A stretch of DNA of 64,000 nucleotides. It comes from Desertivirga arenae (lineage in GTDB: Bacteria; Bacteroidota; Bacteroidia; Sphingobacteriales; Sphingobacteriaceae). The DNA lies in assembly GCF_017355785.1 (NCBI RefSeq), contig NZ_JAFEWE010000002.1:110618-174617 (forward strand), in the 5' to 3' direction. The notes under the pieces were generated by a model. It did not search any database and was not told the origin of the DNA. It was given only the letters and a program-made list of their open reading frames with translations. Made by a program: the position numbers and the translations under genes. Positions 3,001-30,200 of this stretch are shown here, one piece after another (the stretch's first letter is position 1; each line of letters opens with the position of its first letter).

Positions 3001-3308
3001 TCGCCGTCCTTACGTCGAATGCGGCGGATGTAATAATATGGCTGCTTATCCTGCGCCGCCCTTTCGAGTATCTGACGAACATTCTCGGCATCGTTGGGAT
3101 GCGAACGTGAATCGATGAAATCGAGACTTGGCTCAAACGAAAAAGGTTCTTCTCCGAAGAGCTGATACATCCCTTCAGAGAAGTAAAACTTATTGGCATT
3201 GAGGTTCACTTCGTAGGTGCCGATCCCGGCTATCTCTTCTATAGACCGAACTAAGTCTTCCTCGGTTTGCAGGCGGGCGGTATTCTGTGATTGGCTGTTG
3301 TTTTTCAT
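1..3308 (-). CDS. Multi-PAS / GAF-domain sensor protein, probably a sensor histidine kinase. It is 3'-partial: the C-terminal output domain lies beyond the window start. The ORF track missed it because no stop codon is inside the window.
   Basis: Manual reverse-complement translation from the ATG at 3308-3306 (MKNNSQSQNTARLQTEEDL...) reads with no stop codon through to position 1. There are repeated PAS-like blocks, each followed by a 'DITERK..EQ' linker, and two GAF-like segments. Codon usage is consistent. The short + strand ORFs at 247-3199 are antisense artefacts. Confidence 0.8.
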   Translation of the reverse strand, partial: MKNNSQSQNTARLQTEEDLVRSIEEIAGIGTYEVNLNANKFYFSEGMYQLFGEEPFSFEPSLDFIDSRSHPNDAENVRQILERAAQDKQPYYYIRRIRRKDGEWRMVESHGKVITDAEGNAQQFFGVVQDITRRRSAENELVENKEFLRATIDSSLDMIQVFKAVRDKNGQIVDFTWVLNNKTSEQFYGDVIGKSLLESNPGVVGEGIFDTFKRVVETGIPDQSERRYSHEQFDGWFYQSTVKLNDGVATTTANITDRKNAEQEIREKQAVLESVLNNTESSIMLLKPFRNQHGHITDFEYAYANDRTLRSVNREVLSGKRMTQEFPELKDSVLLKHYKQVAETGKSFRDEVDISPYGYSVWAQVFAEKFGEGILVTYFDITERKKTEQQLIDRENLLRTVFEVSLNPIAYHQAVRDEKGDITDFAFILENREARKYALEDRIGQRYSEAYPGIKDTHVFKLYCDVVEGGQPLNTEVQLNLKGTEHWFHLMAVKLDDGLVATAVDITERKHAEQEILNLKDEVTKKATDKYKSLFNSIDEGFCIIELLYDETGKAVDYRWLEANPNYQKHSGIANPAGKLGSEVTPDTENYWLDNYDKVLKTGRPSCYENWHEPSGRWYRTYASRIGVSNSREIAVVFHDVTERKQREQQQQFLLNLSDRLGVADNLKVAQTTVTDLLLKQYEAGWCYYVEWDEEKNTGVVQYDSRREDLLSLAGTHDVSGVPEYFDLLKSGHILNIGDYENYELLTPEIRGRYIAAGFRSMLVASQVRQGKLISSLIIADTKIRNWSVNDEALLAAVAERTWAAVERAKAEEALGASEERLAFLVRLGDALRAQTDEEAIGEITTRLLGEFLNVDRCYLNCVLYEENVSIVGPEYRRSDLQPHTGRYKLTEFPESMRRLVMQPMQVDDFVNDPGFSDEEKAMLAASQIGALLVTPLRRGGADTSWRALTVASVQPRAWKRDEAALVEGVAERTWIALERAKAEVALRKSEEKYRTLFETIEEGFCIMEVVRNEQGDVIDIIYREVNKAFERHTGLANVVGKRSTETIPNQDPGRFQFYQRLLETGETSLDEVYINDVKRWLRLYRMRLGGPGSNFFAAVFE

Positions 3309-5032: not shown

Positions 5033-5336
5033 TAAGGAGTAGGCTTCTATTCAACTTCCGATTCCTCTAGTAGTTCCTTTTCGGCTTCCATATAGTGCAT
5101 ACCCTGGAAGAATTGAACCACATAGAGGCAATAAAAGATGTTTAGGCTTAAAGTGTAGTAGAAATTGGTTTGGGGTTGTTTATTATAACTGACAAATCTA
5201 TTTCCTATCTTTGCCACCATCAACAACCCTCATATCATTTGAGCCATGTAATGTCATACATACATTCTGTTTAAAGAATGACTTCCTCTCTCAGAGGAAG
5301 AGATGACTCTTATTGTTTTATTTAATCTTAAACATC

Positions 5337-5891
5337 ATGGCTATTTCAAAAAAATATGGCAGGACATATCATTATCCTTTTTCGCCAGGCACTACCAGCG
5401 ACGACAGGATACAACATAATTATTGGGAACTTGTAAAAGAAATTCCAGAGCTTTTACATACCGAGAAACTTGACGGAGAAAACAACTGTTTGTCAAAACT
5501 TGGCGTATTTGCCCGTTCCCATGCTGCTCCAACGGTTTCTCCATGGACAGAGAGCTTGCGTAGGTTCTGGCAATTAATCAAAAACGACCTGGGCGATCTG
5601 GAAATATTTCTGGAGAACCTGTATGCAGTTCACTCTATCGAATACAGGAATCTGGATCATCATTTTTATGTATTCGGGGTGCGGGAGAATGATCGCTGGC
5701 TAAGCTGGGAGGAAACAAAGTTCTATGCTAACATGCTTGATCTTCCTACTGTACCGGAATTACAATTTTCAACCAGCTTGTCAGACACAAAAGCTTTCGA
5801 ACAGGAAGTTTTGAACCTTGCTTCGGGCAGAGGATCTTTCGAACCCTTTGATATTCATTCGGCAAACCGACCACGATTGAAGGTATTGTGA
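5337..5891 (+). CDS. ATP-dependent polynucleotide (RNA) ligase family protein: a nucleotidyltransferase with the KxDG adenylation motif.
   Basis: Motif I 'EKLDGEN' (KxDG) sits about 50 aa from the N-terminus. The likely true start is MAISKKYGRTYHY at 5337, rather than the 5313 ATG of the track ORF. It lies immediately upstream of the HD-Pnk gene. Confidence 0.65.
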   Translation: MAISKKYGRTYHYPFSPGTTSDDRIQHNYWELVKEIPELLHTEKLDGENNCLSKLGVFARSHAAPTVSPWTESLRRFWQLIKNDLGDLEIFLENLYAVHSIEYRNLDHHFYVFGVRENDRWLSWEETKFYANMLDLPTVPELQFSTSLSDTKAFEQEVLNLASGRGSFEPFDIHSANRPRLKVL

Positions 5892-6029
5892 GCCGGAACA
5901 CTAAGGCCTATTCGGTGGATAGCTTTTCAGAGAACGTTTTCAAATATGTTAGAAAAGGGCATGTAAAAACGGACGAGCACTGGACTAGAAACTGGAAGCG
6001 AGCGAGACTAAATCAGGAAGGAGGTAGCT

Positions 6030-7136
6030 ATGTGGACTATCAGTAAAAATAAGGATTGGGATTATCTCAAAGAAAATTTTGATTGGGTTAGTCGCATGGA
6101 AAATGTTCATCAAGATCCTCGTCATCATGCAGAGGGGAATGTCGCCATTCATACGCAGATGGTATTGAATGCATTAGATAGTCTTCCTGGCTTTCAAAAT
6201 CTTTTACCTCAGGAACAGGAGATCCTTTGGGCGTCAGCTTTGCTGCACGACGTTGAAAAGTATAATACTACGGTGCTGGAAGCAGACGGAAGTATTACAG
6301 CTCATGGCCATGCTCGTAAGGGAGCAATGAAAACTCGTCAAATATTGTATCGGGAAATTGCAACACCTTTCCCTATACGTGAACAGATCGTAGGGTTAGT
6401 ACGCCATCACGGCTTGCCTTTATGGTTACTGGAAAAGCCTGATCCTCTTAAGGTTCTGGTAAAAGCAAGTTATGAGGTAAATACAGAATGGCTGGCTTTA
6501 TTAGCAAGAGCAGATGCTTTGGGACGCTACTGCCAGGATCAGGAAGATTTGCTTTATCGGATTGACTGCTTTGAAGAGTATTGCAGGGAACGTAGTTGCT
6601 GGGGCGCTGCAAAAACCTTTCATTCTTCCCATGCCCGAATGTATTACCTTGCTAAAGAAAACAGTCCCGTCGATTATGTGCCTTTTCAGGAACCAGAGGC
6701 AGAAGTTGTCTTATTATCAGGATTACCTGGTGCAGGGAAGGATAATTATCTGCAAAAGCATCTGTCAGAAATGCCTCAGATTTCTCTGGATAATATCCGT
6801 CGGGAAAAGCGAATTTCTCCGACAGATAAAAAGGCCAATGGAAGAGTAATTCAGGAAGCAAAAGAGATGGCAAAAGGTCTTCTGAGAAAGAAGAAAGGAT
6901 TTGTGTGGAATGCAACTAATATTACTTCACAAATGCGCTCGCAGCTAATTGAGCTTTTTACTTCTTATGGTGCTAAGGTGCGTATTGTTTACATTGAGGT
7001 TCCTTATCAAACTCTCCAGGGGCAAAATACAAAACGGGAGGAAATGGTTCCCGGGAATGTAATTGAGCATCTCATTGATAAGTTGGAAGTGCCGGCAGCT
7101 TGGGAAGCGCATGAGGTGAAATATATTATTAGGTAA
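6030..7136 (+). CDS. HD-Pnk type end-healing enzyme: an N-terminal HD phosphoesterase domain plus a C-terminal P-loop polynucleotide 5'-OH kinase domain.
   Basis: HD-domain signature H..H...HD ('HHAEGNVAIHTQM...LLHDVEKY'). Walker A 'LLSGLPGAGKD' in the C-terminal third. The architecture matches the HD-Pnk family described from Runella, which is typically operonic with a ligase. Confidence 0.7.
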   Translation: MWTISKNKDWDYLKENFDWVSRMENVHQDPRHHAEGNVAIHTQMVLNALDSLPGFQNLLPQEQEILWASALLHDVEKYNTTVLEADGSITAHGHARKGAMKTRQILYREIATPFPIREQIVGLVRHHGLPLWLLEKPDPLKVLVKASYEVNTEWLALLARADALGRYCQDQEDLLYRIDCFEEYCRERSCWGAAKTFHSSHARMYYLAKENSPVDYVPFQEPEAEVVLLSGLPGAGKDNYLQKHLSEMPQISLDNIRREKRISPTDKKANGRVIQEAKEMAKGLLRKKKGFVWNATNITSQMRSQLIELFTSYGAKVRIVYIEVPYQTLQGQNTKREEMVPGNVIEHLIDKLEVPAAWEAHEVKYIIR

Positions 7137-9314: not shown

Positions 9315-9736
9315 AATATGCTGTTGAAACTGACGGATTGCGATCGCAGTTTGCCAGTGCTGCGGAGCTTAAAAAACTGCGTTTAGAAACAAATAAGGCC
9401 GCTTTCCTTACGGAGAACAGCCTTATTTGTTCGTGCTCGCAACCGGGCATTTCTCGAACCATTTTATAGATGATTTAAGGAAATTAGCAAGCGTTGAAAC
9501 AACTTCCCATCATTAAAATAGCGTAGCTTCCAATTGATCTCTCCACATAATGAACCTTTTTTGATAGTTAGAATAATCGTGAACAATACGACTAAAACCG
9601 GGGGGATTAGTTCCGGCAAGTGAAAGCAAAGGTGAAGGAACAAAAAAATAATTCCCACCTAATACCAGATGTGTGCGTTTTTGTGTTTAGATTAAAGTTG
9701 GCGCGAAGACATGACGCCCCTTTACAATCTATTAAT

Positions 9737-10939
9737 ATGGACAACACCCCGGAAAGAATCTCGACGCTTGAAAAAGAAAACTCTATCCTCCAGGCGACAA
9801 TAAATTCTTTGCAAGAATATCAAAACGAGAGAGATGCTCTGCAAAAAGCTTACAATGAAAGCCAGGTTCGTTTCAGAACTATTTTTGAAGAGTCCTCACT
9901 GGGAAATAAGATTATCAATGAAGAATTGAACATAATTCAGATAAACAAAAGCTTGATTGATATATTGGGTTACAACGAAGAGGAACTGGTAGGAAGAAAG
10001 ATAATAGAGTATACCCATCCAGATTATGTGCAGGGATGGGAGAAGTTAAGAAAAGAGTTATGGTCGAAGGAAAACGCTCGTACCTCCTTTAGTATTGACA
10101 CATGTTTAATCAGGAAAGATAAATCGACCATCTGGTGCCATGTAAGTTCAATTATTTTTCATGATAATGGGGACCGACTTGGCTACACGATAATAGAAGA
10201 TATTACTGACAGAAAGGAAGCTCAACGAATTAAAGATGAACTTTTAAAGCGCGACCATCTACTGGAGCTCAAAATCCAGGAACAAAAAAAGCAACAGGAA
10301 TTGTTTCACGCTACGATTCGTGCCCAAGAAGAAGAAAGAGAGCGAATAGCAGAGCAGTTACATAATAGTTTAGGGCAATTGCTCTATGCTGCAAAACTCA
10401 ACCTGGATCAAATAAAACCAGGCGAAGACCGAGAAATAAATGAGATAAACAGAAAGCAACTCAGTAAAACGGAAGGGCTTATAGCAGATTGTATTACTGA
10501 ATGCAGAAGAACCTCCCATGGGTTATTGCCAATGATCTTAAAAGATTATGGTCTGCGGGCAGCAATCGCAGATCTATGTGAACAGTTGAACCCGGGTTTA
10601 AACATAAAATGGCAATTTAACAGCTCGCATGCCATTAAAGATAAGTATGTAGAAGTGGTAATCTTTAGAACAGTGCAGGAACTTTTATTAAATGTAGTGA
10701 AACATGCTGCTGCAACTAAAGCCTTCTGTAAAGTGGATATTTCTAAGAGCAGGATTTCCCTGTCAGTGGAAGATAATGGTAAGGGTTTTGACCCCGGCAA
10801 AATCGAGGGGAGAGGTATCGGGTTAACGGCGCTAAAAGGTAGAATCGAATTGATGGGCGGTACTTTGAATATCTCAAGTAATGTTAACGGGGGAACCGTA
10901 ATCAGCATACAACTGCCCCGGGGAGTGTCTAAAGAATGA
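9737..10939 (+). CDS. PAS-domain sensor histidine kinase of HisKA_3 / NarL-partner type.
   Basis: PAS block (FRTIFEESSLGNKIIN...EEELVG), coiled coil, H-box 'EEERERIAEQLHNSLGQLL' and HATPase_c G-boxes (DNGKGF, GIGL). The likely start is MDNTPER at 9737; the track ORF begins at 9620. Confidence 0.8.
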   Translation: MDNTPERISTLEKENSILQATINSLQEYQNERDALQKAYNESQVRFRTIFEESSLGNKIINEELNIIQINKSLIDILGYNEEELVGRKIIEYTHPDYVQGWEKLRKELWSKENARTSFSIDTCLIRKDKSTIWCHVSSIIFHDNGDRLGYTIIEDITDRKEAQRIKDELLKRDHLLELKIQEQKKQQELFHATIRAQEEERERIAEQLHNSLGQLLYAAKLNLDQIKPGEDREINEINRKQLSKTEGLIADCITECRRTSHGLLPMILKDYGLRAAIADLCEQLNPGLNIKWQFNSSHAIKDKYVEVVIFRTVQELLLNVVKHAAATKAFCKVDISKSRISLSVEDNGKGFDPGKIEGRGIGLTALKGRIELMGGTLNISSNVNGGTVISIQLPRGVSKE

Positions 10940-13236: not shown

Positions 13237-14466
13237 TCAAGGAAGTGGAAGACGAACGGCGGCAATAGCCCCTTTTCCTGGTGTAGACTTCAATTCGAAA
13301 TTACCTTTTAACAAACTTATATTCCTTCTGATCCTGTCCAATCCAGTGCCTGCACCCTGAACTTCTTCAAGAATAAATCCTTTGCCATTGTCTTCAATTA
13401 CAATTACCATTTCATATCCAATTTCTTTAATAGACAAACTACCAGTGGTCGCTTGCGAATGCTTCATGATATTGACCAGCAGCTCCTGCACAAGCCTGAA
13501 AACGATCATATCAAAATACTTATGAACCTTATAATTTGAAAAATGAATAGTACAACTGAAATCAATTGCCCAACGCGTCTCATCGCAGAGAGACTCAATG
13601 GCTGCTTTCAATCCAAAATCCTGTAGAATTGAGGGCATTAGTTGTTGAGAGATCAACCTACACTCACTAATAGAGGTGTGAAGAAGTTTACCTGCCTGAT
13701 CAATTGCCAGATAATCGGTCTCTTTCCTGTTTCTAGAATTCACTTTGCTCAACTCCATTTGGGTAGCAAACAGTAATTGCGCTAAACTATTGGTAATTCC
13801 ATCTGCAACTTGTTCCTTTTCTCTCTCCTGTGCGATGATAGTTTCCAGAAACTCTTTTTCCCTCAGTCTCTTATCGGTCTCTTCACGTTGCTTCCTTTCA
13901 GAAATGTCCTCGATAATGGTATATCCTAGTTTTTTTCCGTGGTCCTGAAAAACAATAGAAGTAATATGGCACCAAATTAAAGTCTTATCTTTTTTAATAA
14001 TACAGGTATCAATGCTGAAACTCCGGCTTTCGTTTCTCCACAGCGCATTTCTTAACACTTCCCAGCGAACTTTAAAATCCGGATGTGATAATTCGCTGAT
14101 ATCGATTCCGACCAGCTCCTTCTCGGTGTATTGCAGAATATCAATTAGTGCTTTATTTGCTTTAATTATTCGGAGATCAGAATCAATGATTTTCTTGCCC
14201 AACACCGATTGGTCAAATACTGCCCGAAATTTCATGTTTCCCTTATAGATGTCTTCAACACGGCTTTTGTTTAATTCAACAGTTTCTAGGGCCTGCCTAT
14301 GAGATGCTTCAAGGTACTTTATTTCGTTCTTTAATGCCTGAATTTCTTCGAGGTATTTTCTTTCGGTGTTTGTATTCAAAGTTCTTTTAATTAGAGTATT
14401 GATTTTTTCGCAAGCAAAAACTGCTGCAGGTATCCATAAAAACAACTCTCCAATTTGCCGGATCAA
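13237..14466 (-). CDS. PAS-domain sensor histidine kinase (HisKA_3 type). It is a paralog of 9737..10939.
   Basis: PAS block FRAVFDQSVLGKKIIDSD...EKELVG aligns with FRTIFEESSLGNKIINEE...EEELVG. H-box 'EKEQVADGITNSLAQLL' and HATPase G-boxes are present. Confidence 0.8.
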   Translation of the reverse strand: MIRQIGELFLWIPAAVFACEKINTLIKRTLNTNTERKYLEEIQALKNEIKYLEASHRQALETVELNKSRVEDIYKGNMKFRAVFDQSVLGKKIIDSDLRIIKANKALIDILQYTEKELVGIDISELSHPDFKVRWEVLRNALWRNESRSFSIDTCIIKKDKTLIWCHITSIVFQDHGKKLGYTIIEDISERKQREETDKRLREKEFLETIIAQEREKEQVADGITNSLAQLLFATQMELSKVNSRNRKETDYLAIDQAGKLLHTSISECRLISQQLMPSILQDFGLKAAIESLCDETRWAIDFSCTIHFSNYKVHKYFDMIVFRLVQELLVNIMKHSQATTGSLSIKEIGYEMVIVIEDNGKGFILEEVQGAGTGLDRIRRNISLLKGNFELKSTPGKGAIAAVRLPLP

Positions 14467-14688
14467 AGAACTTCTTTACTTAAGATAAACGCAAGTTATA
14501 CTAGTAACGCTTTTTATTAGGATTCTGTTGTTTACCAGGGCTGTAGAAAATTTGATTTGCAGGTAGTCTCTAAATTCTAGTGTTTGTCAGGTTGGTGTTG
14601 AGTTCCAAAGATTAATTTTGGTAAATAGGCGAAGTCCTTATATTATTATCTACCTTGTGCCCCTTACCTCACATAAAAAATAGAAAAC

Positions 14689-15558
14689 ATGCCCTTTGAT
14701 ATTTCGATGATTCTTCAAAAGAAGAAAATGCAGATTCTTGAAATCTGGATTAAAAAACAATTGGAAAGTGCAGATCTGCGGGAAGACCTGTTCAGTAATG
14801 AAGATTTACGCGCATCCTGCGAGGAATTACTGGAAGTCTTGCTGTCTTCACTTAACGAAGACAATTTGACAAATCCGGCTTCAGCAGACTTTGACGAGGT
14901 TAACGAAATATTAGCCGGCATTTCTATTTCTCAAGCGAGGCAAGGGTTTAACCCCCGGGAAACTGCGCTTTTTGTATTTGGATTAAAAGAAAGCCTGATT
15001 GAAATCCTTCAGGAGGAAATTAAAGACCCCCAGGACCTGTTTACTAATTGCTTTAAACTTAACCGTTTACTTGACACGTTCAGTATAACCACTTTTGAGA
15101 CCTTTATTAAGGGTCGAGAGGAAGTAATCTTAAGACAAACCGACGAAATTGCCGAGATTTCTACCCCTGTTATCCGAGTTTGGGACGGCATTTTAGCCCT
15201 GCCCATTATTGGAACTCTTGATAGCGCCCGCACCCAGGTTGTTATGGAAAACTTACTGGAGGAAATTGTGGCATCGGGAAGCAGCATAGCAATCCTTGAT
15301 ATTTCCGGAGTTCCGGCAGTAGATTCCCTGGTTGCGCAGCACCTTATTAAAACAGTTAGTGCTACCCGGTTAATGGGAGCCGAATGTATTATTAGTGGAA
15401 TACGTCCGGAAATAGCACAAACGGTAGTGCACCTCGGTATTGACCTTTCGAATATTGTAACTAAAGCCACTCTGGCGAGCGCTCTGAAATTTGCTTTTCA
15501 GTCAATGAAATTAGAAGTTAAAAGAGTACAGAAGGATAACAGAAATATAGTTAGTTAA
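14689..15558 (+). CDS. RsbR-like stressosome sensor protein (N-terminal sensory domain plus C-terminal STAS).
   Basis: The C-terminal STAS region ('VWDGILALPIIGTLDSARTQ...') is typical of RsbR. It is the first gene of an RsbR-RsbS-RsbT arrangement. Confidence 0.7.
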   Translation: MPFDISMILQKKKMQILEIWIKKQLESADLREDLFSNEDLRASCEELLEVLLSSLNEDNLTNPASADFDEVNEILAGISISQARQGFNPRETALFVFGLKESLIEILQEEIKDPQDLFTNCFKLNRLLDTFSITTFETFIKGREEVILRQTDEIAEISTPVIRVWDGILALPIIGTLDSARTQVVMENLLEEIVASGSSIAILDISGVPAVDSLVAQHLIKTVSATRLMGAECIISGIRPEIAQTVVHLGIDLSNIVTKATLASALKFAFQSMKLEVKRVQKDNRNIVS

Positions 15559-15559
15559 G

Positions 15560-15958
15560 ATGGAGAGAATTCCTATTTTAAGGATGGGACATTACTTGCT
15601 GGTAACCATTCAGGTGGAGTTGTATGACAGGCTAGCGTTAAGTCTGGAAACAGATCTTGTTCAAATGGTTAATAAAACGTCAGCAAAAGGTGTATTAATT
15701 GATATTTCAGCAGTTGCCATAGTAGATTCTTTTATGGGTCGGATTATAGGGAATATAGCAAGTATGTCTAAGATATTGGATGCTCAAACGGTAGTAGTAG
15801 GAATGCAGCCGGCAGTGGCCATTACTCTGGTAGAATTAGGACTTTCCTTGCCTAATGTATTTACAGCTCTTGACGTGCAAAAGGGAATGGATCTTTTAGC
15901 CTCGATGATTGATGTGGAGCAGGAAGATTTCGATGATTACGAGGATAATAATTCTTAA
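15560..15958 (+). CDS. RsbS-like STAS-domain protein (stressosome scaffold / anti-sigma antagonist type).
   Basis: 132 aa, single STAS domain ('LRMGHYLLVTIQVELYD...AKGVLIDISAV'). It starts 2 nt after the rsbR-like stop. Confidence 0.7.
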   Translation: MERIPILRMGHYLLVTIQVELYDRLALSLETDLVQMVNKTSAKGVLIDISAVAIVDSFMGRIIGNIASMSKILDAQTVVVGMQPAVAITLVELGLSLPNVFTALDVQKGMDLLASMIDVEQEDFDDYEDNNS

Positions 15959-16372
15959 ATGATTGTAACACTGTCGAAGGATGTCATGAAGGTGGTAAAG
16001 GATCAGGATGTGGTACCCTTTCGCAATCGGGTAAAAGAGTATGCTGTAAAAATCAAAATGGGCTTAGTCAATCAAACCAAATTGATCACTGCAGCAAGCG
16101 AATTGGTTCGGAACATGCTCAAATATGCCTCGGGAGGCGAAATCCTTATTGAAATAATAACAAAGGGACGAGATAATGGCATCCGCCTTACCTTTAAAGA
16201 TAAGGGTCCGGGAATTCCAGATATCGATCTGGCTATGAAAGACGGTTTTTCTACCGGAAAAAGTTTAGGGCTTGGATTGCCCGGAACTAAACGGCTGGTA
16301 AGCGAATTCGACATCAAAACTATTGTAGGTGAAGGCACTACAGTAAGAATAATAAAATGGGCTAATGGTTAA
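15959..16372 (+). CDS. RsbT-like serine kinase (HATPase_c, anti-sigma regulatory factor type).
   Basis: 137 aa. It carries an N-box (ELVRNMLKYA), G1 'DKGPGI' and G2 'GLGLPGTKRL'. It abuts the rsbS-like gene. Confidence 0.7.
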   Translation: MIVTLSKDVMKVVKDQDVVPFRNRVKEYAVKIKMGLVNQTKLITAASELVRNMLKYASGGEILIEIITKGRDNGIRLTFKDKGPGIPDIDLAMKDGFSTGKSLGLGLPGTKRLVSEFDIKTIVGEGTTVRIIKWANG

Positions 16373-17378
16373 TGCTACTCATCAAAGTTTCAGGGCAGAT
16401 GACCGGAGCTACTTTTCTATCCTGAAAAAGGAAATTCATAAACAGGCACATGATGAAGGATACTCGGATAAGAGGATCGCTGAACTGGATATTATTATTT
16501 CAGAGCTCACTTCTAACCTACATAAGCATGCAGTTGACGGTGAAGTACTTTTTGCTAATATAAAAAGTGAGGCAGGAGACTATCTTGAAATTATCACTAT
16601 TGACAATGGTCCGGGTATAAATGATGTTTCACGGATGATGGCTGATGGAATGTCAACTACAAACACGCTAGGACAGGGGCTCGGGAGCATAAAGAGACTT
16701 TCTGATACATTCGATATTTATAGCCAGAAGGATTGGGGCACCATTACTTTAAACCGCCTGTTGAAAGAGGCGAAAAAACAACGCAACCCCTTAATGTATG
16801 AGATACATGCACTCGTAGTTGCCAAGCCAGGCGAAACCCTAAGCGGAGATGGAACTTACTACAAAGTAACGCAGGAGTACTTTAAAATACTGATTGCTGA
16901 CGGACTTGGGCATGGGCCTGAGGCTAATAAAGCGGTAAATGAGGCTGTTAATGCATTTAAAATTTGTCCATTTCACAGTCCTGTAGAAGTATTGCGATAT
17001 ATAGATTCTTCTATCAAAAGAACCCGGGGAATGGTAGGAACTGTTATTATTTATAACAGGAAGACAAATATCTGGAGTGTGGCGGGCGTGGGAAATATCT
17101 CCTGCAAGTTCGCGAATGGACTATCCTACAAGAACATCATGTCCTACAACGGCATTATTGGTCATAACATTCCAAGAACCATGCATGATCAGGAAATAGC
17201 ACTTGCTGATTTTCCTCATTTTATTGCTTGTTCAGATGGGCTTAAGTCCAAATGGGAAAGCGCAAAGTATCCTCTGATAGGCAGATGCGATCCTTCTATA
17301 CTGGCAGCAGCAATCTACAAGGATTTTGCAAGAAAAACAGATGACATGTCGGTGGTAATCGGCAAAGTAAAAAAATGA
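16365..17378 (+). CDS. Fusion protein: an N-terminal HATPase (RsbW/RsbT-like kinase) domain plus a C-terminal PP2C/SpoIIE-type phosphatase.
   Basis: N-terminal 'ELTSNLHKHA...DNGPGI...GQGLGSIKRL'. Phosphatase motifs 'LIADGLGHGPEAN' and 'ACSDGL'. It overlaps the rsbT-like gene by 8 nt. Confidence 0.7.
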   Translation: MVNATHQSFRADDRSYFSILKKEIHKQAHDEGYSDKRIAELDIIISELTSNLHKHAVDGEVLFANIKSEAGDYLEIITIDNGPGINDVSRMMADGMSTTNTLGQGLGSIKRLSDTFDIYSQKDWGTITLNRLLKEAKKQRNPLMYEIHALVVAKPGETLSGDGTYYKVTQEYFKILIADGLGHGPEANKAVNEAVNAFKICPFHSPVEVLRYIDSSIKRTRGMVGTVIIYNRKTNIWSVAGVGNISCKFANGLSYKNIMSYNGIIGHNIPRTMHDQEIALADFPHFIACSDGLKSKWESAKYPLIGRCDPSILAAAIYKDFARKTDDMSVVIGKVKK

Positions 17379-17379
17379 T

Positions 17380-18573
17380 ATGATTGAGATTGTTCGTGAA
17401 ACTCTGGAAAATGAAATGGATCTGGTTCTTGCTCATAAAAAAGCTATGCGGCTGGCCGAACTCCTGGAGTTAACATTGACAACTCAAACAGTATTTGCTA
17501 CGGCGATTTCAGAAATTTCAAGAGAAATTATTGAGAAAACCAACACAGGAATTCTAACTCTGGGCCTGATTTCGGAAGAGGGGAAATTCTCATTACAAGC
17601 CTCCATACTTTGTGGCGGAGAGGATTGTTACGATTCGGAAAATGAAGGGTTCAGGTACGCTAAGAAGCTTGTTGCCCATTATGAGGAGTATGTAAATGGC
17701 AATAATAAGCTCATTAATCTGCAGATTAAGCTACCTGCACTAGTCAAGATAACTCCTCCAAGGATAGAGAAGTTTATTTATTATTTTGAGCATCTGATGC
17801 CCTTCTCGCCGTACGAGACTATTAAGAGGCAAATCAGCTCAATAACTCAAAAATCTGAGGCCCAGGAGGAAGAACTGAGGAACTCGAAATCTCTGGACGA
17901 TAAGAAGAACGAGTTTATATCCTTAGCAAGTCATGAACTTAAAACACCCGTTACCATAATTAAGGCTTTTGCTCAGCTGGCAAAAAAGTCGGGGCCAGAT
18001 CATTGCAGCGCTACCGTACAAACCTTTATTTCCAAAATAGAAGATCAGGCAAGTAAGCTTACTTCCCTTATTCAGCAATTGTTAGACGTTTCTAAAATGG
18101 AAAGGGATACGCTGGACTACCAAATGGATGAAGCAAGTCTCAATGGGTATATAACAGAAACTCTGTCCATTTTACAGCACACAATTCCCCGTCAGGACCT
18201 GAAAATTAAACTTGGCGCTGATGTGCTTGTAAGATTGGATAAGTTCAGAATGGAGCAGGTCTTTTCTAATTTATTAGGGAATGCGTCCAAATATTCTGCA
18301 GAGTCTACGATCATTACAATTACTACAACCTCAACGATCAAGGAAGTTGTAATTGCAATAAAGGATGAAGGTATGGGAATGTCTGAAGAAGATCTGGTAA
18401 GGGTTTTTGATAAATTTCACCGGAACAAAGAAGTAATCAACAAATATTCAGGGCTCGGCATGGGATTGTACATTTCTTCAAGAATTATTGCCGGACATGG
18501 AGGACGAATCTGGGTAAAAAGTGAATTAAATAAAGGTTCCACCTTCTATTTTTCTATACCTCTCTCTTCCTGA
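17380..18573 (+). CDS. Sensor histidine kinase (HisKA plus HATPase_c) with an uncharacterised cytoplasmic N-terminal domain. It is the last gene of the stressosome operon.
   Basis: H-box 'SHELKTPVT', N-box 'LLGNASKYS', G-boxes 'DEGMGM' and 'GLGMGL'. No transmembrane segment is evident. Confidence 0.8.
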   Translation: MIEIVRETLENEMDLVLAHKKAMRLAELLELTLTTQTVFATAISEISREIIEKTNTGILTLGLISEEGKFSLQASILCGGEDCYDSENEGFRYAKKLVAHYEEYVNGNNKLINLQIKLPALVKITPPRIEKFIYYFEHLMPFSPYETIKRQISSITQKSEAQEEELRNSKSLDDKKNEFISLASHELKTPVTIIKAFAQLAKKSGPDHCSATVQTFISKIEDQASKLTSLIQQLLDVSKMERDTLDYQMDEASLNGYITETLSILQHTIPRQDLKIKLGADVLVRLDKFRMEQVFSNLLGNASKYSAESTIITITTTSTIKEVVIAIKDEGMGMSEEDLVRVFDKFHRNKEVINKYSGLGMGLYISSRIIAGHGGRIWVKSELNKGSTFYFSIPLSS

Positions 18574-21842: not shown

Positions 21843-22298
21843 TTATCCTCCTGCTTTTGAAGCTGTATATGGCTCTTCAAAAAATATCCATATATGTCCG
21901 CCATTGCCCGAGCGCGAGCGTTCGAGATAGGCTGGAATGCTATACTCGTTACAGATTCTTAAAAAATTCCGGCATTCATTTAGCCAGTCCGCTTCATCAA
22001 AATCCGCGGCTATTAACCATGAAGTATTGTCTGTGAGTAAGGGATACACTCCTGCAACTTGCTTTCCTGCAAGATGGTTTATTAACTCCTGATCTGTTAA
22101 TGGCTTATATGTTTTATCCTGAAATGTTTGGAATGTTCCTCCTTTTGCCTGATGGATTCTGTAGCGGTGCGAGTCGTAACTAAAGACCGGGATATAATTG
22201 CCTTTGCCGTTCTTTTCCCATCTTACAGCAAACACATCTTCCCTTGCCTTAAATAGAGATTTGAAAAGACTGAGTTGCTCTGGAATTATAGAAGACAT
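21843..22298 (-). CDS. AEP/PrimPol-like domain protein (151 aa). It is probably truncated: motifs I and II are present, and the protein ends shortly after.
   Basis: Motif I 'WLIAADFDEAD' (hhhDhD). Motif II 'SRSGNGGHIWIFF' (sGxGxHhy). The protein ends 9 aa after motif II. The sequence downstream does not continue in another frame. Confidence 0.45.
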   Translation of the reverse strand: MSSIIPEQLSLFKSLFKAREDVFAVRWEKNGKGNYIPVFSYDSHRYRIHQAKGGTFQTFQDKTYKPLTDQELINHLAGKQVAGVYPLLTDNTSWLIAADFDEADWLNECRNFLRICNEYSIPAYLERSRSGNGGHIWIFFEEPYTASKAGG

Positions 22299-22301
22299 CT
22301 A

Positions 22302-22949
22302 CTAAGATCGTTCGTTAATAGCCTCTTCTATATCCTCTTTAATTAAATCCCAATCCTTACCGAGTAAACAGTGAGGGTCTGGATCTAAATCTGCTTCCTC
22401 AAAATCAGTTAAGTTACTTATAATCTTTGCTGCCTCATGTGTCCACTCGGAACGACTTTTATGTATTTCCAACATATCGTTTATATCATAAGTTCGGAGC
22501 AATTCATGCAGATCCCAGAAATCCTTCTTTCGCCCACCATTCTGAATAACATCCAGTTTCATCCCTACAATATCATGCAAAGAAGCTAGTCTGATATCAT
22601 CTTTAACAATATAAGGATCAATAAATGGGTCCATAGAATAATAAATATCAAGCTTAATTATTTCAGTAGGACTATTTCCTATTAGATAGGATTTTCCAAA
22701 GGCAGGGTTATCTCCAAAGTTTCCGGATACAAAATTAAAAGAGTTCTTCAGGAAGTTTTCAATGATCTCGAAGTCTACACTTCCATAAGAAGCATCTGTA
22801 AAGAGATCAATGTCAACAGACATTCTATGTCCAAGATGTAAGCTTAATGCAGTTCCTCCAACAAGCCTAAAATCCCGAAGTTCTTCTGCGTTCATTAATG
22901 TTAACAGGCTTGACTTTAATAAGTCATTTACAGTATTCCAATAAAGCAT
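22302..22949 (-). CDS. AbiEii/AbiGii-like nucleotidyltransferase (DUF1814) toxin-family protein.
   Basis: 'FRLVGGTALSLHLGHRMSVDIDLFTD' is the characteristic N-terminal NTase motif of the family. It overlaps the upstream HTH gene (ATG within the stop). Confidence 0.65.
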   Translation of the reverse strand: MLYWNTVNDLLKSSLLTLMNAEELRDFRLVGGTALSLHLGHRMSVDIDLFTDASYGSVDFEIIENFLKNSFNFVSGNFGDNPAFGKSYLIGNSPTEIIKLDIYYSMDPFIDPYIVKDDIRLASLHDIVGMKLDVIQNGGRKKDFWDLHELLRTYDINDMLEIHKSRSEWTHEAAKIISNLTDFEEADLDPDPHCLLGKDWDLIKEDIEEAINERS

Positions 22950-23458
22950 TACCGAACTTTTAAATGTCCCATTACATGGATTTCACCCGTAGGGAATTTT
23001 TGACTTAGTACAGCATTTACTTTTTCCAACCCATAAAATCTCGTAATCTCTTCTTTCTCTGCTTCATTACCACGCTCGAACACTCTTTGAATAACAAATT
23101 TAGAATGCTTCTCCCAGTCGATCCGGTTTATATCTGTATCCCAAAAAAGGATACTTCGGAGCATTGAAAGATTAGGATGGAACTTTCTTCTCTCGGCTTC
23201 AAGCTTGATTTTGGCCTCGTAATACTGCTGCAGTTCCATAAAGGTGCCTGTATCAATTCCTAAGGCTTTCTCTGCTTTAGTGGCGATGGAAGGATCTAGA
23301 GAAATTTCGCCATGTGCAATAGCCTCAATAGTACGCTGGTCCTCCTGAATTGAAAAGGCAAAGGAAGTTATACTAAGCTTTCTTTTTCTTAGCTCATGAT
23401 CCAGAATAGCTCCTGGACGAATTCCTTTGTATTTTTCAAGGTGCGAAAGCATATTCAA
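22949..23458 (-). CDS. HTH (XRE/HigA-like) antitoxin-type partner of the AbiEii-like gene.
   Basis: N-terminal HTH-like segment ('LSITSFAFSIQEDQRTIEAIAHGE...ATKAEKALGI'). Translationally coupled to the downstream NTase gene. Confidence 0.5.
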   Translation of the reverse strand: MNMLSHLEKYKGIRPGAILDHELRKRKLSITSFAFSIQEDQRTIEAIAHGEISLDPSIATKAEKALGIDTGTFMELQQYYEAKIKLEAERRKFHPNLSMLRSILFWDTDINRIDWEKHSKFVIQRVFERGNEAEKEEITRFYGLEKVNAVLSQKFPTGEIHVMGHLKVR

Positions 23459-24231: not shown

Positions 24232-27200
24232 TTATCGTATCTCAAACAACCCTCCATTGGTGTGTGAACTAACTTCAGGAGCATAGATACTTTGAATTGT
24301 GGCTACTCCAGAATTGAATATCCCTGATTGTACAGCTCGAAGATTGTATTCAAACCTATAGCTCCCTTTTGGAAGCTGGCTGATAAAGAAGTTAGTGGAA
24401 GCATCCTTAGTTACCTGGTAATAGTACAACCTATCTTCATATTTAAAGCCTGATAAAACATTTTCTGGTTCAGTTCCTGATGGCCTCAGGTCTTTTAAAT
24501 GCACATACTCCAAATTTCTTTCATTATCAAGGTACAGTATTACTTTGATAGTACTTCCGGGCGAAGGCTTGATAATTCCCTTTAACTCTTCATATACTAC
24601 CCCATTCTCGGTTTTCTTTTCTATAAAGTATTTGCGCTGAAGGAACAATCCTGAATGAGCAGGTCTAATCTCAGAGGCTTTCTGCTGGTATTGCCAGTGC
24701 AGGGCCGCAAAGTTCAGACTGGTTCCGGTATTTTTAATTCTGACTTTCGCGAGCTCAGGCTTGATATCCGTATTCCAATTGGTCTTTAGGTAACCTGTTG
24801 CAGTTTCTGCTTTTAATGAAGGTTTAAGTTTCATCAGATCTTCATCGCCAAGACTGATCTGAGAAGTACCTGAGTGGGCTGAAATTGTCGTTTCATATAA
24901 TAAAGCTTGAATCGCAGCAGCGGTAGCTTTGGTACTTTCCCAGGCCGCAACGCGTTTATTACATAATAGCCATACCTTCATCTCTTCTACAGCAGCTTTA
25001 TTATTAGTACATTCTGAGAATACTTTAATCAGGAGGGCTTGTGTCTCTATTGGTGACTGAATAACCGACATTCCCGCCTTATTTCCTTGCCAGAACATTC
25101 CCAGCTCAGCACTTCTTGTTGCACTTTCTTCGAGGGATTTCACAATTCTATCACTCAGTTCTGTATCTCCATACCTCCGGGCAATAAGGGCAATCTTTGC
25201 CTTTCCTGAAAGGCCCTCTTCTACCCAACGTGTCTGAACGGAGTTCAAGAAGTAATCCTTCGCTTTACTTAAATCGTTACCCAAAAGCTTTTCAGGAAAA
25301 TAGCTACGGGCAAACCACCCTTCAATATCTGCCTGATACCCTTCCTTCCCACGGTTCCGGTAATCGTTCAGGAGCTCCGATTCCACGTACTTCAGCAAGC
25401 CTTCTTTAACGCCTTTCAATTCTTCGTCACCCTGCTTCACCAAGAATTTTAACTCACCGAATCCTGTTAATAGATACTTGCTGATGTAGGGATCACCGTA
25501 ACGACTGCCAGAAAACCATGAAAACGCTCCATTAGACATTTGAGCTCTTTTCAGCTTCTCTGCATTTTCAGCAAGGCCTGCGCTTACTTTATTCAAGTCA
25601 AATAAAAGAGCTATTCGCCTTTTCTGCTCCTCTTCATCCTGAACGTCTTTAAGCCAGGGAGTTTCCTCAATCAAAACAGATTTAAGCTCTTTATTCTTTT
25701 CGAGGTCAGAAAGTAAAGCAGAACTGCTTGCCGCTTTCCATTGATTAAATACCTGTTGAATAATTTTATATTTACTGACTATATCAGAGGCAAAACGATT
25801 AGCAAAATAACGGTTGAAGATCTGTTCGGAGCATTCGTAAGGATACTCTATTAGGTAAGGCAGAGCCTGGATTGCAGACCACGAAGTATTTTGGGTGAAT
25901 TCGAACGCGAGGTTAATACTCTCCCTGCTACTGCTTTTGCTGTTGAAAAGTCTCTCTAAAACAAAGGTCTTATCCTCTCCTGACCGTACGATCATTGGCA
26001 TGGACTCTGTAATTTGTAACTTGTCTGGCAATACCGGAATTATATTTTCTTCTGCATCAGTATGGGTTCCGGTTACCGCACTTATTTTATAAGTAAGCGT
26101 GTTTATTTTTTCCGGGACCTTAAATTTATAGGAAAGTGCTGTCGCTCCATTTCCAAAGATCGAGAAGCTCTTATTGACTTCTGAACTCTCCAATAAATTG
26201 ATATGCTCTTTCTTTGCGGGATCGTAGATCTCGAGTTCAGCCCTGCCTTTAATTTTTTCGGAACCCAGGTTTACAACCCTTGCTTGTACTGTAATAAAGT
26301 CTCCCTCCCTGAAAAATCTTGGCATGTTTGCAGAAACCATCAGTTTCTTCTGAGTGAGTACTTCAATCTCACCGTACCCGCTTTCCATCTCCTTATTATG
26401 GGCAAAAGCTCGGAACTTCCAGGAAGTCAAAGATTCAGGCATTGTAAAGTCGAAGGATACTTCCCCTTTTGCATCGGCTAACAAGTGCGGATAGAAGAAG
26501 GCAGTTTCGTTAAAGTTCTTCCGTACCTGAATTTCCAATTTATCAGGAGGAGGCAATAGCGGTAAAGGCGGTGCTTTGAGTTCGATATTTGCAACCTCAT
26601 AAACTGCATTATCTTCTACAACTAAAGCTTGTAGGGAAGGTGGTGTCGCTCCTACTGGCTGGTCAATCCTTACTTCTGCATTTGGATCTCCTTCTAAGGT
26701 TTTCACCCCTGGATCTTTAATGGACATCCCGTTGCCAAATTGGATCAGTAGAGGAAATCCTTTCAATGGCCTGATTCGTTTATCTTTAAAGTATTTACAG
26801 CTAACAATAAGGTCGCGTCCTACAGGCACCCGCAGTTTGAAGTAGCCGTTTTTATCTACCGAAGTAACAAAAGAGGACCCGTCGATCCTTATATTTATCC
26901 AAGGATATGCTAGTGCTGTGTGAATTACTTTCCCAACTACGTCAAAGCCGTTTTTGAATAGCAGTAAATTCCTTCTATAAGCGGCATCAACAACAGTTCT
27001 GTTATTTTTAGTCTTGTTAGCCTTATGCTCCAAATCTTCGAATGGTTCATCATAGGTATAGTAAAAATTTCTATAACTTGAAGGGTGATCGTTTATTTTC
27101 TCATATATCGACTTATCCATCTCTGCGAAGTACTCATCTTCATCCAGCGCGTTTGAAGAGAACAGAGACTGGAAGTCTGAAGTGTTCCATTGGTAATAAA

Positions 27201-30200
27201 AACTATTATAGACTGGCTGCAAAAACGGCTGGGTCCAGCCACCGGTCTTTTTTAACCCATCTAAAGAGGAATCATACATACTTACCAATACTTCTGAATC
27301 GCTGATTCCTCCTCTTTGTTTAGAAACCGATAACCTCCAATTTTCTTTAGCACCAGGTTCAACTTTGTTCCGGTAAGTAAGTAATTTGACGTTTAAGTTT
27401 TGCCTTTGAGCTTGCATATGAAACTCTTTTTGCCAGGTTAGGACAGTGTTATCAACCACGGCAAGGAATTGAACATTAAAGTCACTTGTCCCATTTATAG
27501 GAAGACTGACCTCGCCGTTGCGGGCATCCGGGTTGAGCCATTGTGAATAAATGATTTCGGCGCCTTTATAAACCTCTGCCAGAAGCATGTAGCTTCCCTT
27601 AACGCGGACAGCAAAACTTATTCTATTATCCTTTGAGGGTTTCTCTCCCAGAGAAACTATCCATTTACCGGAACGGTTTGGATTTCCAAATTCTACCCGA
27701 CTAGCATTAGGGTAATAAACGGCCGAGGAGGTGTCCCCTTTCTCATTTTCAGCAAAAAGCTTCAGACAATAGCCACTCATCTTAAACCTCGATAAGTTTC
27801 TTAGGTTGATAATACCCTGAAGCCCTGACCTTATGATTATAACCGTATCTGATACCATTTTACCAAGGGTCCCATTCGAAAGTTTAGGCTCGATATAGCT
27901 ATAAGAAGGGAAATTGCTTAAAAAATCAATCTTAGGAATTATCATGGTATCAGGATGAGCCCATAGACGTCTCCGGTATGCTGTATCAGGTGATACCAGT
28001 TCGTATAAAAATGCTTTGATCTTTCCGGACTGAGGCGTTCCGTTTAAATTACTTAAGCTAACCGGAATAGAAACGGTATCCTGCAAGACATCTTCTTCAG
28101 GCATTATTGCGCTTATACTCAAGAGTTTTTCACCTACTGTGACTGATGATTTTGCAGTATGGGTTTCACCAGTTGAAGAAATTGACGAAATCGCAATATT
28201 GTAATTATAAACCATGTCTGGCGATTGCTCTTGCCTATTAATCAAAGCTTTAAAGGGAATAACAAAATCACCTGAGGTGTTAGTAATAACGGTATCAGAA
28301 GCAATCTTTATCTCATTATTTTCCGCAACCATGTCATTTTCTATTTCAGAAAAAAAAGGATAACCTCCCAATGCGCGTGTTCTTACAATCGAATAAGCAA
28401 CTTTCGTATTTGCAAGACCATATCCGGCTAAAGCCTTCACTGTTCCTCTAACCTTAACCGAGTCATTAAACCGGTAGCTTTCTTTAATGGGTTGGACAGC
28501 TATAGAAAAAGTCGGACGTTTATATTCTTCAACCTGTACAGACAGTACTCCCCATGTAGTGCGTAACCAGTACTCTCCATTTATTGCATCTTCAGGAATC
28601 TCGAAAGAACCACTAAATGTGCCGAAATCATTAGTTTTAAAATCCTTTACCCCCACTCTACTTCTGTTACCCCAGCTCCAAAATTCAACCTCGACATTTG
28701 TACCTTTTGAAATAAACGAGCGTTTGTTCACAGTACTGGTCATCAAGCCTTTAAAATACAATTTTTGTCCTGGACGGTAAATACTTCGATCTGAAAAGAA
28801 AGTCACATTAGGAACAGGCGTAGGATCAGCATCTTTACGATTTAAGGTGTTACCAGAAATACCAACATCACTAACTTCAATACTATCTACACCCTTCTTA
28901 ATTTTAACGGTTAAATTACCATAATCACCAAAGCTTACTTTACCCAAATCATTAGTCTTCCAGATTCCAATAAGTTCAGGTTTATTTTTTCTCCAATCAC
29001 GGCGGGTGACCTTTACCATAGCTCCAGAAACTGGTTTACCTGAATATCTGTCCAGAACAAGAACCTCCTTTGTTTTATCAGGCTTTTGTCTTGCAACAAA
29101 AGAAAGCCTGGTAACAGTAAAATGCACTAGATGCGTCAGAGAAAGTTCGTCAGAATTGGCATCTATGACTAAGGCTGCATGGTCACCAATCTGCCGAGGT
29201 AACATTTGAAATTCCGTTCGATGATCTTTAAAGTCCTTAAAATCCGGTAGATCTACCGCAAATTGCTCCCCCGTGGTTTTCTTATTGAAGAAGTCTAACA
29301 ATAGCTGGTAATCTTTTGCGTTTGGTTTATACTTCCCTCTGATGTTTTGTTCAATCGTATTCAGTTGTTTTTTTTCTAGTGGAGAAAGCTTTATCACTTT
29401 GACAAATACCTTTTTCACATTTCTGTAAGAGATTGAGGCCAGTATCCTTTGATTTGGAATATTATACTTTTCAATTTCTACAATCATTTGCCTGTTCTCA
29501 ATTTCTCGGATCATTCCTTTCGCATTAGAGATAGCAAATAACTTCCCGTCCAGATCCGTTGCTTTTTGCGCGTAAAAGCGAGACCTAATTAGATCCCTGC
29601 TATTCTTGTAATATTCGGCCAGCAAGCACAACGCTTCTGCTTTTAAATTACCTTTCTGCACATCCACGATCTTCTGCAACGCCCGGACATATAAAGTGTC
29701 TTTCTCCGGTAAAACACTTTCCTGGAACAGAAAAGCAAGTCGTTTTAAATCAACATCAATAAGTGCTTCCGGGTCTTTATCCTTCAAATGAAATTGAGTA
29801 AGCTGCTGCAAAACTTTAAAACCCTCGTAATAGGTAGAGGCTGTATCTGCCGTTATTATCTGGTAAGAGGCCAAAGCTCCATTATCACTAAATAATTCAG
29901 GATCATTTAAAGTAAACGGCAACTTTGGTCGGGTTACAGCCGGTTCCTCATTCAGAAAAAACTCCAGACTTCTGTGAGCAAGAAGATCATATAAAGTAGG
30001 GCGCAAACGGCGTGTAAGGGTATCTCCTTCGAGGATCTCATTGTATTTCCCGATAGGAATTTCCTGTAATCTATCTCTATTGCTTATTGATTGCTTATAA
30101 AACTTGCTGGTCTCATTAATCAGGGCCTGGATTCCCCACTTACTAATATCCGGCCCAGGTTCATCAAGAGTACTTCTACTATTGATATCGTAACGATTAC

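Follow-up and report, generated by a model that had tools for sequence, protein, structure and literature searches.

Within a 64,000-nucleotide stretch of the Desertivirga arenae genome, hereafter called the window, we analysed a five-gene operon in the order rsbR-rsbS-rsbT-X-HK, in which the genes of a stressosome are followed by those of a fusion phosphatase (X) and of a histidine kinase (HK). Our results indicate that the operon is probably a Bacteroidota version of the rsbR-rsbS-rsbT-rsbX stressosome module, having as its output a soluble HisKA kinase and not RsbU and sigma-B. As judged by profile comparison, it holds three RsbT-type GHKL modules: the free kinase RsbT, a second copy fused to the phosphatase, and a third, degenerate copy at the N-terminus of the output kinase. 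The genes, all on the plus strand, are given here with the coordinates of the open reading frame (ORF) list.

14689-15558, plus strand: rsbR (R), 289 amino acids
15560-15958, plus strand: rsbS (S), 132 amino acids
15959-16372, plus strand: rsbT (T), 137 amino acids
16365-17378, plus strand: X, a fusion of an RsbT-like and a PP2C domain, 337 amino acids, starting 8 nucleotides inside rsbT
17380-18573, plus strand: HK, the histidine kinase, 397 amino acids, WP_207532456.1

A first-pass annotation of the window had described five overlapping or abutting genes at 14689-18573, and all of the ORFs and junctions were found at the positions it gave, the junctions being, in order, a 1-nucleotide gap, a direct abutment, an 8-nucleotide overlap and a 1-nucleotide gap. 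It had also named the first three genes RsbR, RsbS and RsbT, and this assignment was borne out: they are specific RsbR, RsbS and RsbT homologues, the best PDB matches of the first two being the stressosome RsbR and RsbS proteins of Vibrio, Listeria and Bacillus (1e-32 and 5e-31). In R, Pfam recognised an RsbRD_N sensor domain (2.2e-24) and a STAS domain (3.3e-15).

14704-15012, plus strand: RsbRD_N sensor domain of R, amino acids 6-108
15166-15483, plus strand: STAS domain of R, amino acids 160-265

Against the PDB, R matched Vibrio vulnificus RsbR at 8.9e-33 and Listeria RsbR at 3e-32, aligned along the full length of R (residues 4-272). Its Ser179 and Ser213 occupy the places of T175 and T209 in Listeria RsbR, as read from PDB mutant entries. 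S was identified by Pfam as a STAS protein (1.6e-7) and matched Listeria RsbS (5e-31), Bacillus subtilis RsbS (7.7e-30) and Moorella MtS (1.5e-24), while its Ser57, in a VDSF motif, aligns with the phospho-acceptor serine changed to alanine in PDB entry 9O4R. R and S are therefore stressosome-type STAS proteins with kept phospho-acceptor serines, and not generic STAS proteins. T was matched by HATPase_c (2.1e-14) and HATPase_c_2 (5.1e-8) and is 41% identical to B. subtilis RsbT in a gapless alignment over 128 amino acids (112 bits, against 24 bits for RsbW). The B. subtilis RsbT and RsbW reference sequences used in this and in all other RsbT/RsbW bit comparisons were entered by hand; we take the RsbT sequence to be sound, since a gapless 41% and 112 bits are beyond what an inaccurate sequence would yield. 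Because its ATP-binding motifs are intact (N-box ELVRN, G1 DKGPG, G2 GLGLPG), free T looks catalytically competent.

The fourth protein, X, had been presented in the first-pass annotation as an HATPase-PP2C fusion forming an output of the operon. X is 100% identical to an NCBI protein of D. arenae. Its two domains are real, but the output role did not survive closer comparison.

16365-16769, plus strand: RsbT-like GHKL domain of X, amino acids 1 to about 135, with ELTSN, DNGPG and GQGLG intact
16809-17363, plus strand: PP2C domain of X, amino acids 149-333

Pfam detected HATPase_c_2 in X at 4.7e-5 and gave a weak SpoIIE/PP2C match at 0.0064; it found no Response_reg match, the GHKL and PP2C domains lying about 14 residues apart. 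The N-terminal domain matched the T family in hhalign at 99.4% (E 6e-22) and scored 65 bits against the hand-entered RsbT and 27 against RsbW. Residues 149-333 matched Moorella MtX (3ZT9, 4.3e-15) and B. subtilis RsbX (3W40, 2.2e-3), RsbX-class phosphatases being the sole PDB matches of the PP2C domain, and the aspartate motifs SGD162, AD179GLGHG, SD291G and D326D327 align with conserved MtX positions. Because its PP2C domain best matches MtX and RsbX and because it sits in the RsbX slot of rsbRSTX (PMC9237108), X is better read as an RsbX-type feedback phosphatase with an extra RsbT-like domain than as an output. The alternative that the fusion is itself the output, a combined RsbW/RsbU-like switch working in parallel to an orphan kinase, seems to us highly improbable. 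It draws on the joining of a kinase-type to a phosphatase-type domain in one chain and on the names that NCBI gives to the homologues of X, of which there are more than 3,300 and which vary between 'serine/threonine protein kinase' and 'SpoIIE family protein phosphatase'. However, the PP2C domain matches the RsbX class only, X occupies the RsbX position of a conserved RSTX module, and no gene for an RsbV-like free STAS protein, a sigma factor or an anti-sigma factor lies nearby for X to act on, the STAS proteins of the window being R and S only. A second D. arenae HATPase-PP2C protein (P0021), encoded on another contig, is 63% identical to X, and the genome probably carries a second RSTX-type module.

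The N-terminal region of HK, about 170 amino acids long, had been called uncharacterised. This holds in so far as Pfam gave no match on HK residues 1-170; the fold, however, is a known one, and the domain is a degenerate GHKL paralogue of RsbT.

17380-17739, plus strand: HK N-terminal domain, amino acids 1 to about 120, a degenerate RsbT-type GHKL domain

When this domain alone was used as the query, a word-indexed search gave 3 matches, and an exhaustive profile search of representatives was used instead. Run over 1.84 billion representatives, it retrieved 412 proteins at E<=1e-3; with the representatives clustered at 50% identity, the family thus numbers 412 clusters or more. In the 150 best of the 412 matches the domain is N-terminal or nearly so, and the full-length members that were scanned comprise HisKA kinases of about 400 amino acids, PAS-containing kinases of 540-815 and hybrid kinases of 700-815. 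In hhalign the family matched the RsbT family of the operon at 98.9% (E 3e-17, residues 6-115 against 9-132). Its profile reached free proteins of 132-137 amino acids named RsbT by JGI at 1e-13 to 1e-15 in a collection of 5.8 billion sequences, and it scored 52.9 bits with the hand-entered RsbT against 10.1 bits with RsbW; T, the N-terminal domain of X and that of HK thus all score far better against RsbT than against RsbW. Moreover, in distant family members the N-terminal domain is seen by Pfam as HATPase_c_2 at 1e-11 to 1e-14, and the same is true of the fifth gene of a Ferruginibacter locus (L008).

Structure prediction led to the same assignment. An AlphaFold 2 (AF2) model of the N-terminal region, made with a 52-sequence alignment, had a pLDDT of 96 and the topology beta-alpha-alpha-beta-beta-alpha-beta-beta, followed by a short helix and then by a long one (144-184) leading into the dimerisation and histidine phosphotransfer (DHp) domain. 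The top structural matches of this model were the UsfX/RsfB and RsbW/RsbV complexes, in which GHKL domains of the same fold bind STAS partners. Profile comparison, the AF2 model and the structure search all place the HK N-terminal domain in the Bergerat fold of the partner-switching kinase subclass. For full-length HK, an AF2 model built from the single sequence was discarded (pLDDT 38). We also considered whether the domain could be an analogue of RsbU_N by homology, and rejected this, as it had no Pfam match and its fold is alpha/beta GHKL and not a helical bundle; with a cut-off of E<=0.01, Pfam recognised RsbU_N in none of the five operon proteins.

Compared with T, the HK N-terminal domain has a deletion of about 13 residues exactly at the G1/ATP-lid/G2 segment, and its N-box reads SEISRE in place of SELVRN, with Glu49 where Asn stood; G1 DxGxG, G2 GxG and the ATP lid are not present in the domain of the window HK. 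It belongs to the RsbT family by descent but is predicted to be catalytically dead. Such loss is the commonest state among the 77 full-length representatives, 46 of which have lost the N-box Asn, G1 and G2 (the window type), while 21 keep all three and 7 keep the N-box Asn alone. Because so many representatives have lost these motifs, ATP binding is dispensable for the domain, an RsbT paralogue that can do without its nucleotide site. Nevertheless, D14, E45 and R48 are invariant in the family, N11, T37, T41 and A42 are nearly so, and E45 aligns with the N-box Glu of T; part of the helix-alpha1/alpha2 face is thus still constrained. The degenerate domain is invisible to Pfam, and kinases that carry it are annotated merely as generic sensor histidine kinases.

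In the AF2 model the RsbT-derived domain joins directly to the long helix that enters the DHp domain, and the remainder of HK divides as follows, the limits of linker and helix being taken from the AF2 secondary structure.

17740-17904, plus strand: HK linker and start of the signalling helix; linker helix amino acids 126-137, long helix amino acids 144-184
17905-18573, plus strand: HK core; HisKA/DHp amino acids 176-241, HATPase_c amino acids 287-396

At the start of the signalling helix (amino acids 142-153, nucleotides 17803-17838) stands a PxSPYEEIKxKN-type motif, FSPYETIKRQ in the window, which was derived from the consensus of alignment A2 and is common to the degenerate and intact subfamilies, ahead of either PAS or HisKA; Y145 and L155 are nearly invariant in the same alignment. 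The core was recognised by Pfam as HisKA (4.4e-14) and HATPase_c (3.1e-25) and has His185 in SHELKTP, an N-box GNASKY, G1 DEGMGM and G2 GLGMGL. It matched the PnpS-, WalK- and PhoR-like cores of NCBIfam at 1e-43 to 1e-52, all below the family cut-offs. In keeping with the earlier description of HK as a cytoplasmic HisKA kinase, its hydropathy maximum was 1.26 in a 19-residue Kyte-Doolittle window, and no transmembrane-like segment was found by this measure in any of the five operon proteins; the two maxima above 1.6 among them correspond to the buried STAS core around the phospho-site.

The association of this N-terminal domain with stressosome genes is not confined to the window. The order R-S-T-X-HK was found in all eight related genome loci, from Sphingobacteriaceae and Chitinophagaceae, and the fifth gene keeps the N-terminal domain at 37-44% identity, even in those loci with a PAS insertion and a diverged kinase core. 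A metagenome scan with alignment A1 as the query yielded 80 loci; the full series was present in 54 of the 54 that had at least 2.1 kb of upstream sequence, and in the remaining 26 it was seen as far as the contig reaches. The five genes occur in the same order in Pontibacter (L009), on a contig of 68.6% GC (L011), where R has a PAS sensor, and on contigs of about 50% GC (L012 and L013), the HK N-terminal domain being of the intact type in L009 and in L012/L013. Since the same order recurs in the genome loci, the metagenome loci, Pontibacter and distant lineages, the five-gene arrangement is far from chance. On one contig (L010, 6248-9130) a hybrid kinase (REC-Hpt, REC denoting a receiver domain) with the same N-terminal domain stands upstream of R-S, and the association of this domain with stressosome genes thus survives rearrangement. 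Members of the family abound in Sphingobacteriia, Chitinophagia and Cytophagia from soil, and at least one high-GC lineage has them too. The hybrid kinase of L010 adjoins a divergent NarL-type regulator, and in L012 (6406-8602) and L013 (5856-8052) genes for REC and REC-GGDEF-EAL proteins come after the module, which is a cyclic di-GMP (c-di-GMP) output as in Vibrio.

Because HK is the conserved last gene of the series, partner-switching control of a phosphorelay, as the first-pass annotation had suggested, is the natural reading of the operon. That the N-terminal domain of HK is an RsbT paralogue, however, alters the mechanistic picture. The hallmark of RsbT is its reversible binding to the RsbS/RsbR STAS core, and since RsbT is defined by this binding and all three modules are RsbT-like, a docking model is the most economical one: the three RsbT-type modules are most likely STAS-docking modules. 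According to this model, R and S would form a STAS scaffold, with the RsbRD_N domain of R receiving the input. T would be held on unphosphorylated S and R and, upon stimulation, would phosphorylate Ser57 of S and Ser179 and Ser213 of R. The RsbT-like domains of X and HK would bring the phosphatase and the kinase to the RsbR/RsbS scaffold, and the pseudokinase domain of HK would bind there as RsbT does, being unable to phosphorylate it. Phosphorylation of the STAS domains by T, or competition with T, would then release the HK N-terminal domain, after which the signalling helix would switch HK autophosphorylation and HK would phosphorylate a receiver encoded elsewhere in the genome. X would dock through its own RsbT-like domain and dephosphorylate S and R, thereby resetting the system; since its ATP site is intact, X may also be a bifunctional kinase/phosphatase like SypE. 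We propose tentatively, as possible rather than probable, that the scaffold directly sequesters HK and its own phosphatase through these RsbT-mimic domains, and that HK is a client of the STAS core that is released or switched upon phosphorylation by RsbT.

Several points weigh against the docking model. The docking role is deduced from homology and gene linkage only, and the same data fit a pairing of released T with the HK N-terminal domain, GHKL to GHKL, instead of binding to STAS. The N-terminal domain of X has kept its ATP site intact, although docking alone would not call for one, and a large pseudo-icosahedral R/S complex of about 1.8 MDa that sequesters T is here an assumption. The window shows no identified cognate regulator, the one receiver encoded in it, at 60288-60716, being merely 31-33% identical to the RECs linked to the operon in Chitinophagaceae. 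Finally, the HATPase N-terminal domains of X and of the intact-type kinases may already have been noted in Pané-Farré 2005, given that domains of the intact type would have been visible to users of SMART and Pfam.

The pairing just mentioned amounts to a relay from RsbT to the kinase, in which the HK N-terminal domain would lie off the scaffold and act, in the role of RsbU_N, as the receptor for released RsbT, GHKL pairing, of the kind seen between protomers of RsbW or SpoIIAB, then switching the kinase through the signalling helix. We regard this as rather unlikely, although part of the evidence suits it. The HK domain is nearer to T than the N-terminal domain of X is (98.9% against 95.7% in hhalign), its alignment takes in beta1/alpha1, and its most conserved stretch is beta1 with the following loop, LENEMD, which contains N11 and D14; RsbW and SpoIIAB have been reported to dimerise through beta1 (PMC10120452), and a free T is present in every locus examined. 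Such a relay, however, leaves the RsbT-like domain on X without explanation, and it does not account for the invariance, despite the loss of ATP binding, of E45 and R48, two residues aligned with the N-box region of T. Nor is a dimer partner of the GHKL-paralogue kind documented for RsbT, and Heinz et al. (PMC9237108) did not detect an interaction of VvRsbT with VvD1, the kinase encoded downstream of the V. vulnificus module, which is a different and larger protein.

The same authors suggested for Vibrio a transient Ser/Thr phosphorylation of the kinase (PMC9237108), and the Moorella stressosome kinase MtT has been reported to phosphorylate the downstream diguanylate cyclase MtG (PMC4976288). 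Transferred to the present operon, RsbT or the kinase domain of X would phosphorylate HK on Ser/Thr, and the N-terminal domain would be a regulatory pseudo-CA domain acting in cis. We consider this quite improbable, since it gives no reason for an N-terminal RsbT-derived domain in at least 412 family representatives and leaves its strict linkage to R-S-T-X unexplained; moreover, no conserved Ser/Thr acceptor was identified on HK.

As to the receiver that HK would phosphorylate, no response regulator was found in or adjoining the operon, and none of the neighbouring genes encodes a sigma or anti-sigma factor; the first-pass annotation had reported the lack of all three for the operon itself. 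The scan of the other window ORFs gave no sigma or anti-sigma gene either; no anti-anti-sigma gene stands beside the operon, and the window has no STAS proteins or small GHKL paralogues other than those of the operon. A single response regulator was found in the window, namely the single-domain receiver mentioned above (60288-60716, plus strand), 42 kb from the operon. The Chitinophagaceae operon-linked RECs to which it is 31-33% identical are themselves 47-64% identical to one another, and among the operon-linked receivers with which it was compared its best match was that of Pontibacter (28%, 69 bits), the others scoring 40-51 bits, which is too weak for a cognate call. A single-domain REC is the sixth gene in the Chitinophagaceae loci, and one is also present in L009 and L012; in the metagenomes, a REC-like ORF followed the kinase within about 6 kb in only about 4 of the 80 loci, which are of the subfamily of about 400 amino acids.

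Stressosomes that have a two-component system as output, in place of sigma-B, are known from earlier work. According to PMC9237108 and PMC10014275, Pané-Farré 2005 catalogued RSTX modules that have two-component, c-di-GMP or PP2C outputs and come from Bacteroidetes, Cyanobacteria and Proteobacteria, and the RSTX module of V. vulnificus has been studied experimentally (PMC9237108, PMC10014275). Its locus, VvRsbR-S-T-X with VvD1 and VvD2, resembles the D. arenae operon in having an rsbRSTX core and, directly after it, a two-component sensor kinase, and in lacking sigma-B, RsbU, RsbV and RsbW as well as an RsbU_N domain on the downstream kinase; a functional link is supported by phenotypes that mutants of RSTX and of D1 have in common (PMC9237108, PMC10014275). 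The two loci differ in the sensor, which is a haem globin in VvRsbR and RsbRD_N in R; in the phosphatase, VvRsbX being a single-domain PP2C whereas X has an RsbT-like N-terminal domain; and in the kinase, VvD1 being much larger and followed by a c-di-GMP response regulator, whereas HK has 397 amino acids, an RsbT-derived N-terminal domain and no adjoining regulator. Heinz et al. 2022 (PMC9237108) found that most proteins downstream of stressosomes are without RsbU_N, and described RsbX in the globin-coupled set as a single-domain PP2C.

The RsbR-RsbS-RsbT-RsbU-RsbV-RsbW-SigB-RsbX system of B. subtilis and Listeria shares with the present operon clear homologues of R, S and T, the kept phospho-acceptors and an RsbX-class phosphatase. 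The D. arenae operon, in contrast, is without RsbU, RsbV, RsbW and SigB and has a histidine kinase as its output, and its phosphatase, encoded immediately after T, bears a fused RsbT-like domain; the target of RsbT, the RsbU_N helical bundle in B. subtilis and Listeria, may here be an RsbT paralogue. Closer in layout is MtR-MtS-MtT-MtX-MtG of Moorella thermoacetica (Quin 2012, cited in PMC4976288), which has the RSTX order and a non-sigma output, MtX and MtS being respectively the best PDB match of the X PP2C domain (4.3e-15) and a match of S (1.5e-24). The Moorella output is a diguanylate cyclase, whereas that of D. arenae is a histidine kinase, and the MtX chain whose structure was solved (3ZT9), 193 residues long, comprises the PP2C domain only.

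For X as a putative bifunctional enzyme acting on S and R, the best precedent is SypE of Vibrio fischeri, which combines an N-terminal RsbW-type Ser kinase and a C-terminal PP2C domain in one chain and acts on the STAS protein SypA (PMC10120452). SypE, however, has a central REC that switches its kinase and phosphatase activities, whereas X has none, and SypA is a free single STAS protein outside an RsbR/RsbS scaffold (PMC10120452). Among non-catalytic GHKL anti-sigma factors and fused partner-switching proteins, Mycobacterium tuberculosis UsfX-RsfB and Rv1364c and Pseudomonas aeruginosa SiaB control sigma factors or a diguanylate cyclase, and, unlike the N-terminal domain of HK, none of them is the N-terminal input domain of a HisKA kinase. 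In the literature searched, which left Pané-Farré 2005 and Quin 2012 outside its scope, we found no description of an RsbT-like domain on RsbX or of a degenerate RsbT domain on an output kinase, and nothing relevant on a Bacteroidota stressosome or on histidine kinases that carry a pseudokinase or an RsbT-like domain.

The operon is neighboured by a transglutaminase-like gene, a divergent PAS kinase, two small ORFs without assignment and a fatty-acid desaturase. The first-pass annotation had placed it in a dedicated sensing neighbourhood on account of three PAS sensors. These are real, as the domain scan confirmed, but the argument is weak, for the flanking PAS kinases are not kept beside the module in related loci.

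3-3308, minus strand: PAS/GAF protein
9620-10939, plus strand: PAS kinase
13237-14466, minus strand: PAS kinase
14613-14620, plus strand: candidate Bacteroidota -7 element TAATTTTG, fitting TAnnTTTG, about 70 nucleotides upstream of rsbR

In class, the two PAS kinases (9620-10939 and 13237-14466) differ from the HisKA kinase of the operon, since they either belong to HisKA_3 (NarX/DesK-like) or have no detectable DHp domain. The -7 element was located by regular expression in the 222-nucleotide intergenic region and, with 30 TAnnTTTG matches on the plus strand across the window, is a candidate only; a scan for sigma-70 promoters and terminators gave counts near the shuffle expectation, sigma-70 being the wrong promoter type for Bacteroidota.

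Other features of the window lie apart from the operon. At 21843-23458 (minus strand) are three adjacent ORFs with conflict-system or toxin-antitoxin signatures: one of 151 amino acids, which covers the first 143 of the 230 positions of a TOTE-system AEP primase domain (1.4e-50) and is possibly a pseudogene or a truncated gene, an AbiEii nucleotidyltransferase toxin (1.8e-22) and a DUF6922 protein (2.1e-25). A bacterial alpha-2-macroglobulin of 2,109 amino acids with MG2, A2M and bMG10 domains is encoded at 24232-30561 (minus strand). An ORF of the RNA-ligase family (1.8e-21), followed by an HD and AAA_33 (kinase-like) protein, occupies 5313-7136 (plus strand), and the two look like an RNA-repair pair. 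The 984-amino-acid protein at 35495-38449 (plus strand) combines Reg_prop/Y_Y_Y beta-propeller repeats with a C-terminal GerE (LuxR-type) helix-turn-helix; as the domain scan detected neither a kinase nor a receiver domain in it, it would represent a one-component counterpart to the hybrid two-component sensors of Bacteroidota.

Many phyla without sigma-B have stressosomes, and how they are coupled to diverse outputs is an acknowledged gap. For those without an RsbU_N target, RsbT-mimic domains provide a specific and testable hypothesis of how the output is reached. Since the output kinase and the reset phosphatase of this module both begin with a copy of RsbT, and since the copy on the kinase is mostly without an ATP site, a wiring rule is suggested in which RsbT-like domains serve as adaptors, either to the STAS core or to RsbT. 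If true, the sequestration of HK by the scaffold would be a previously undescribed physical coupling of partner-switching to two-component signalling, and it might hold generally among the many stressosome loci in which the proteins downstream have no RsbU_N.

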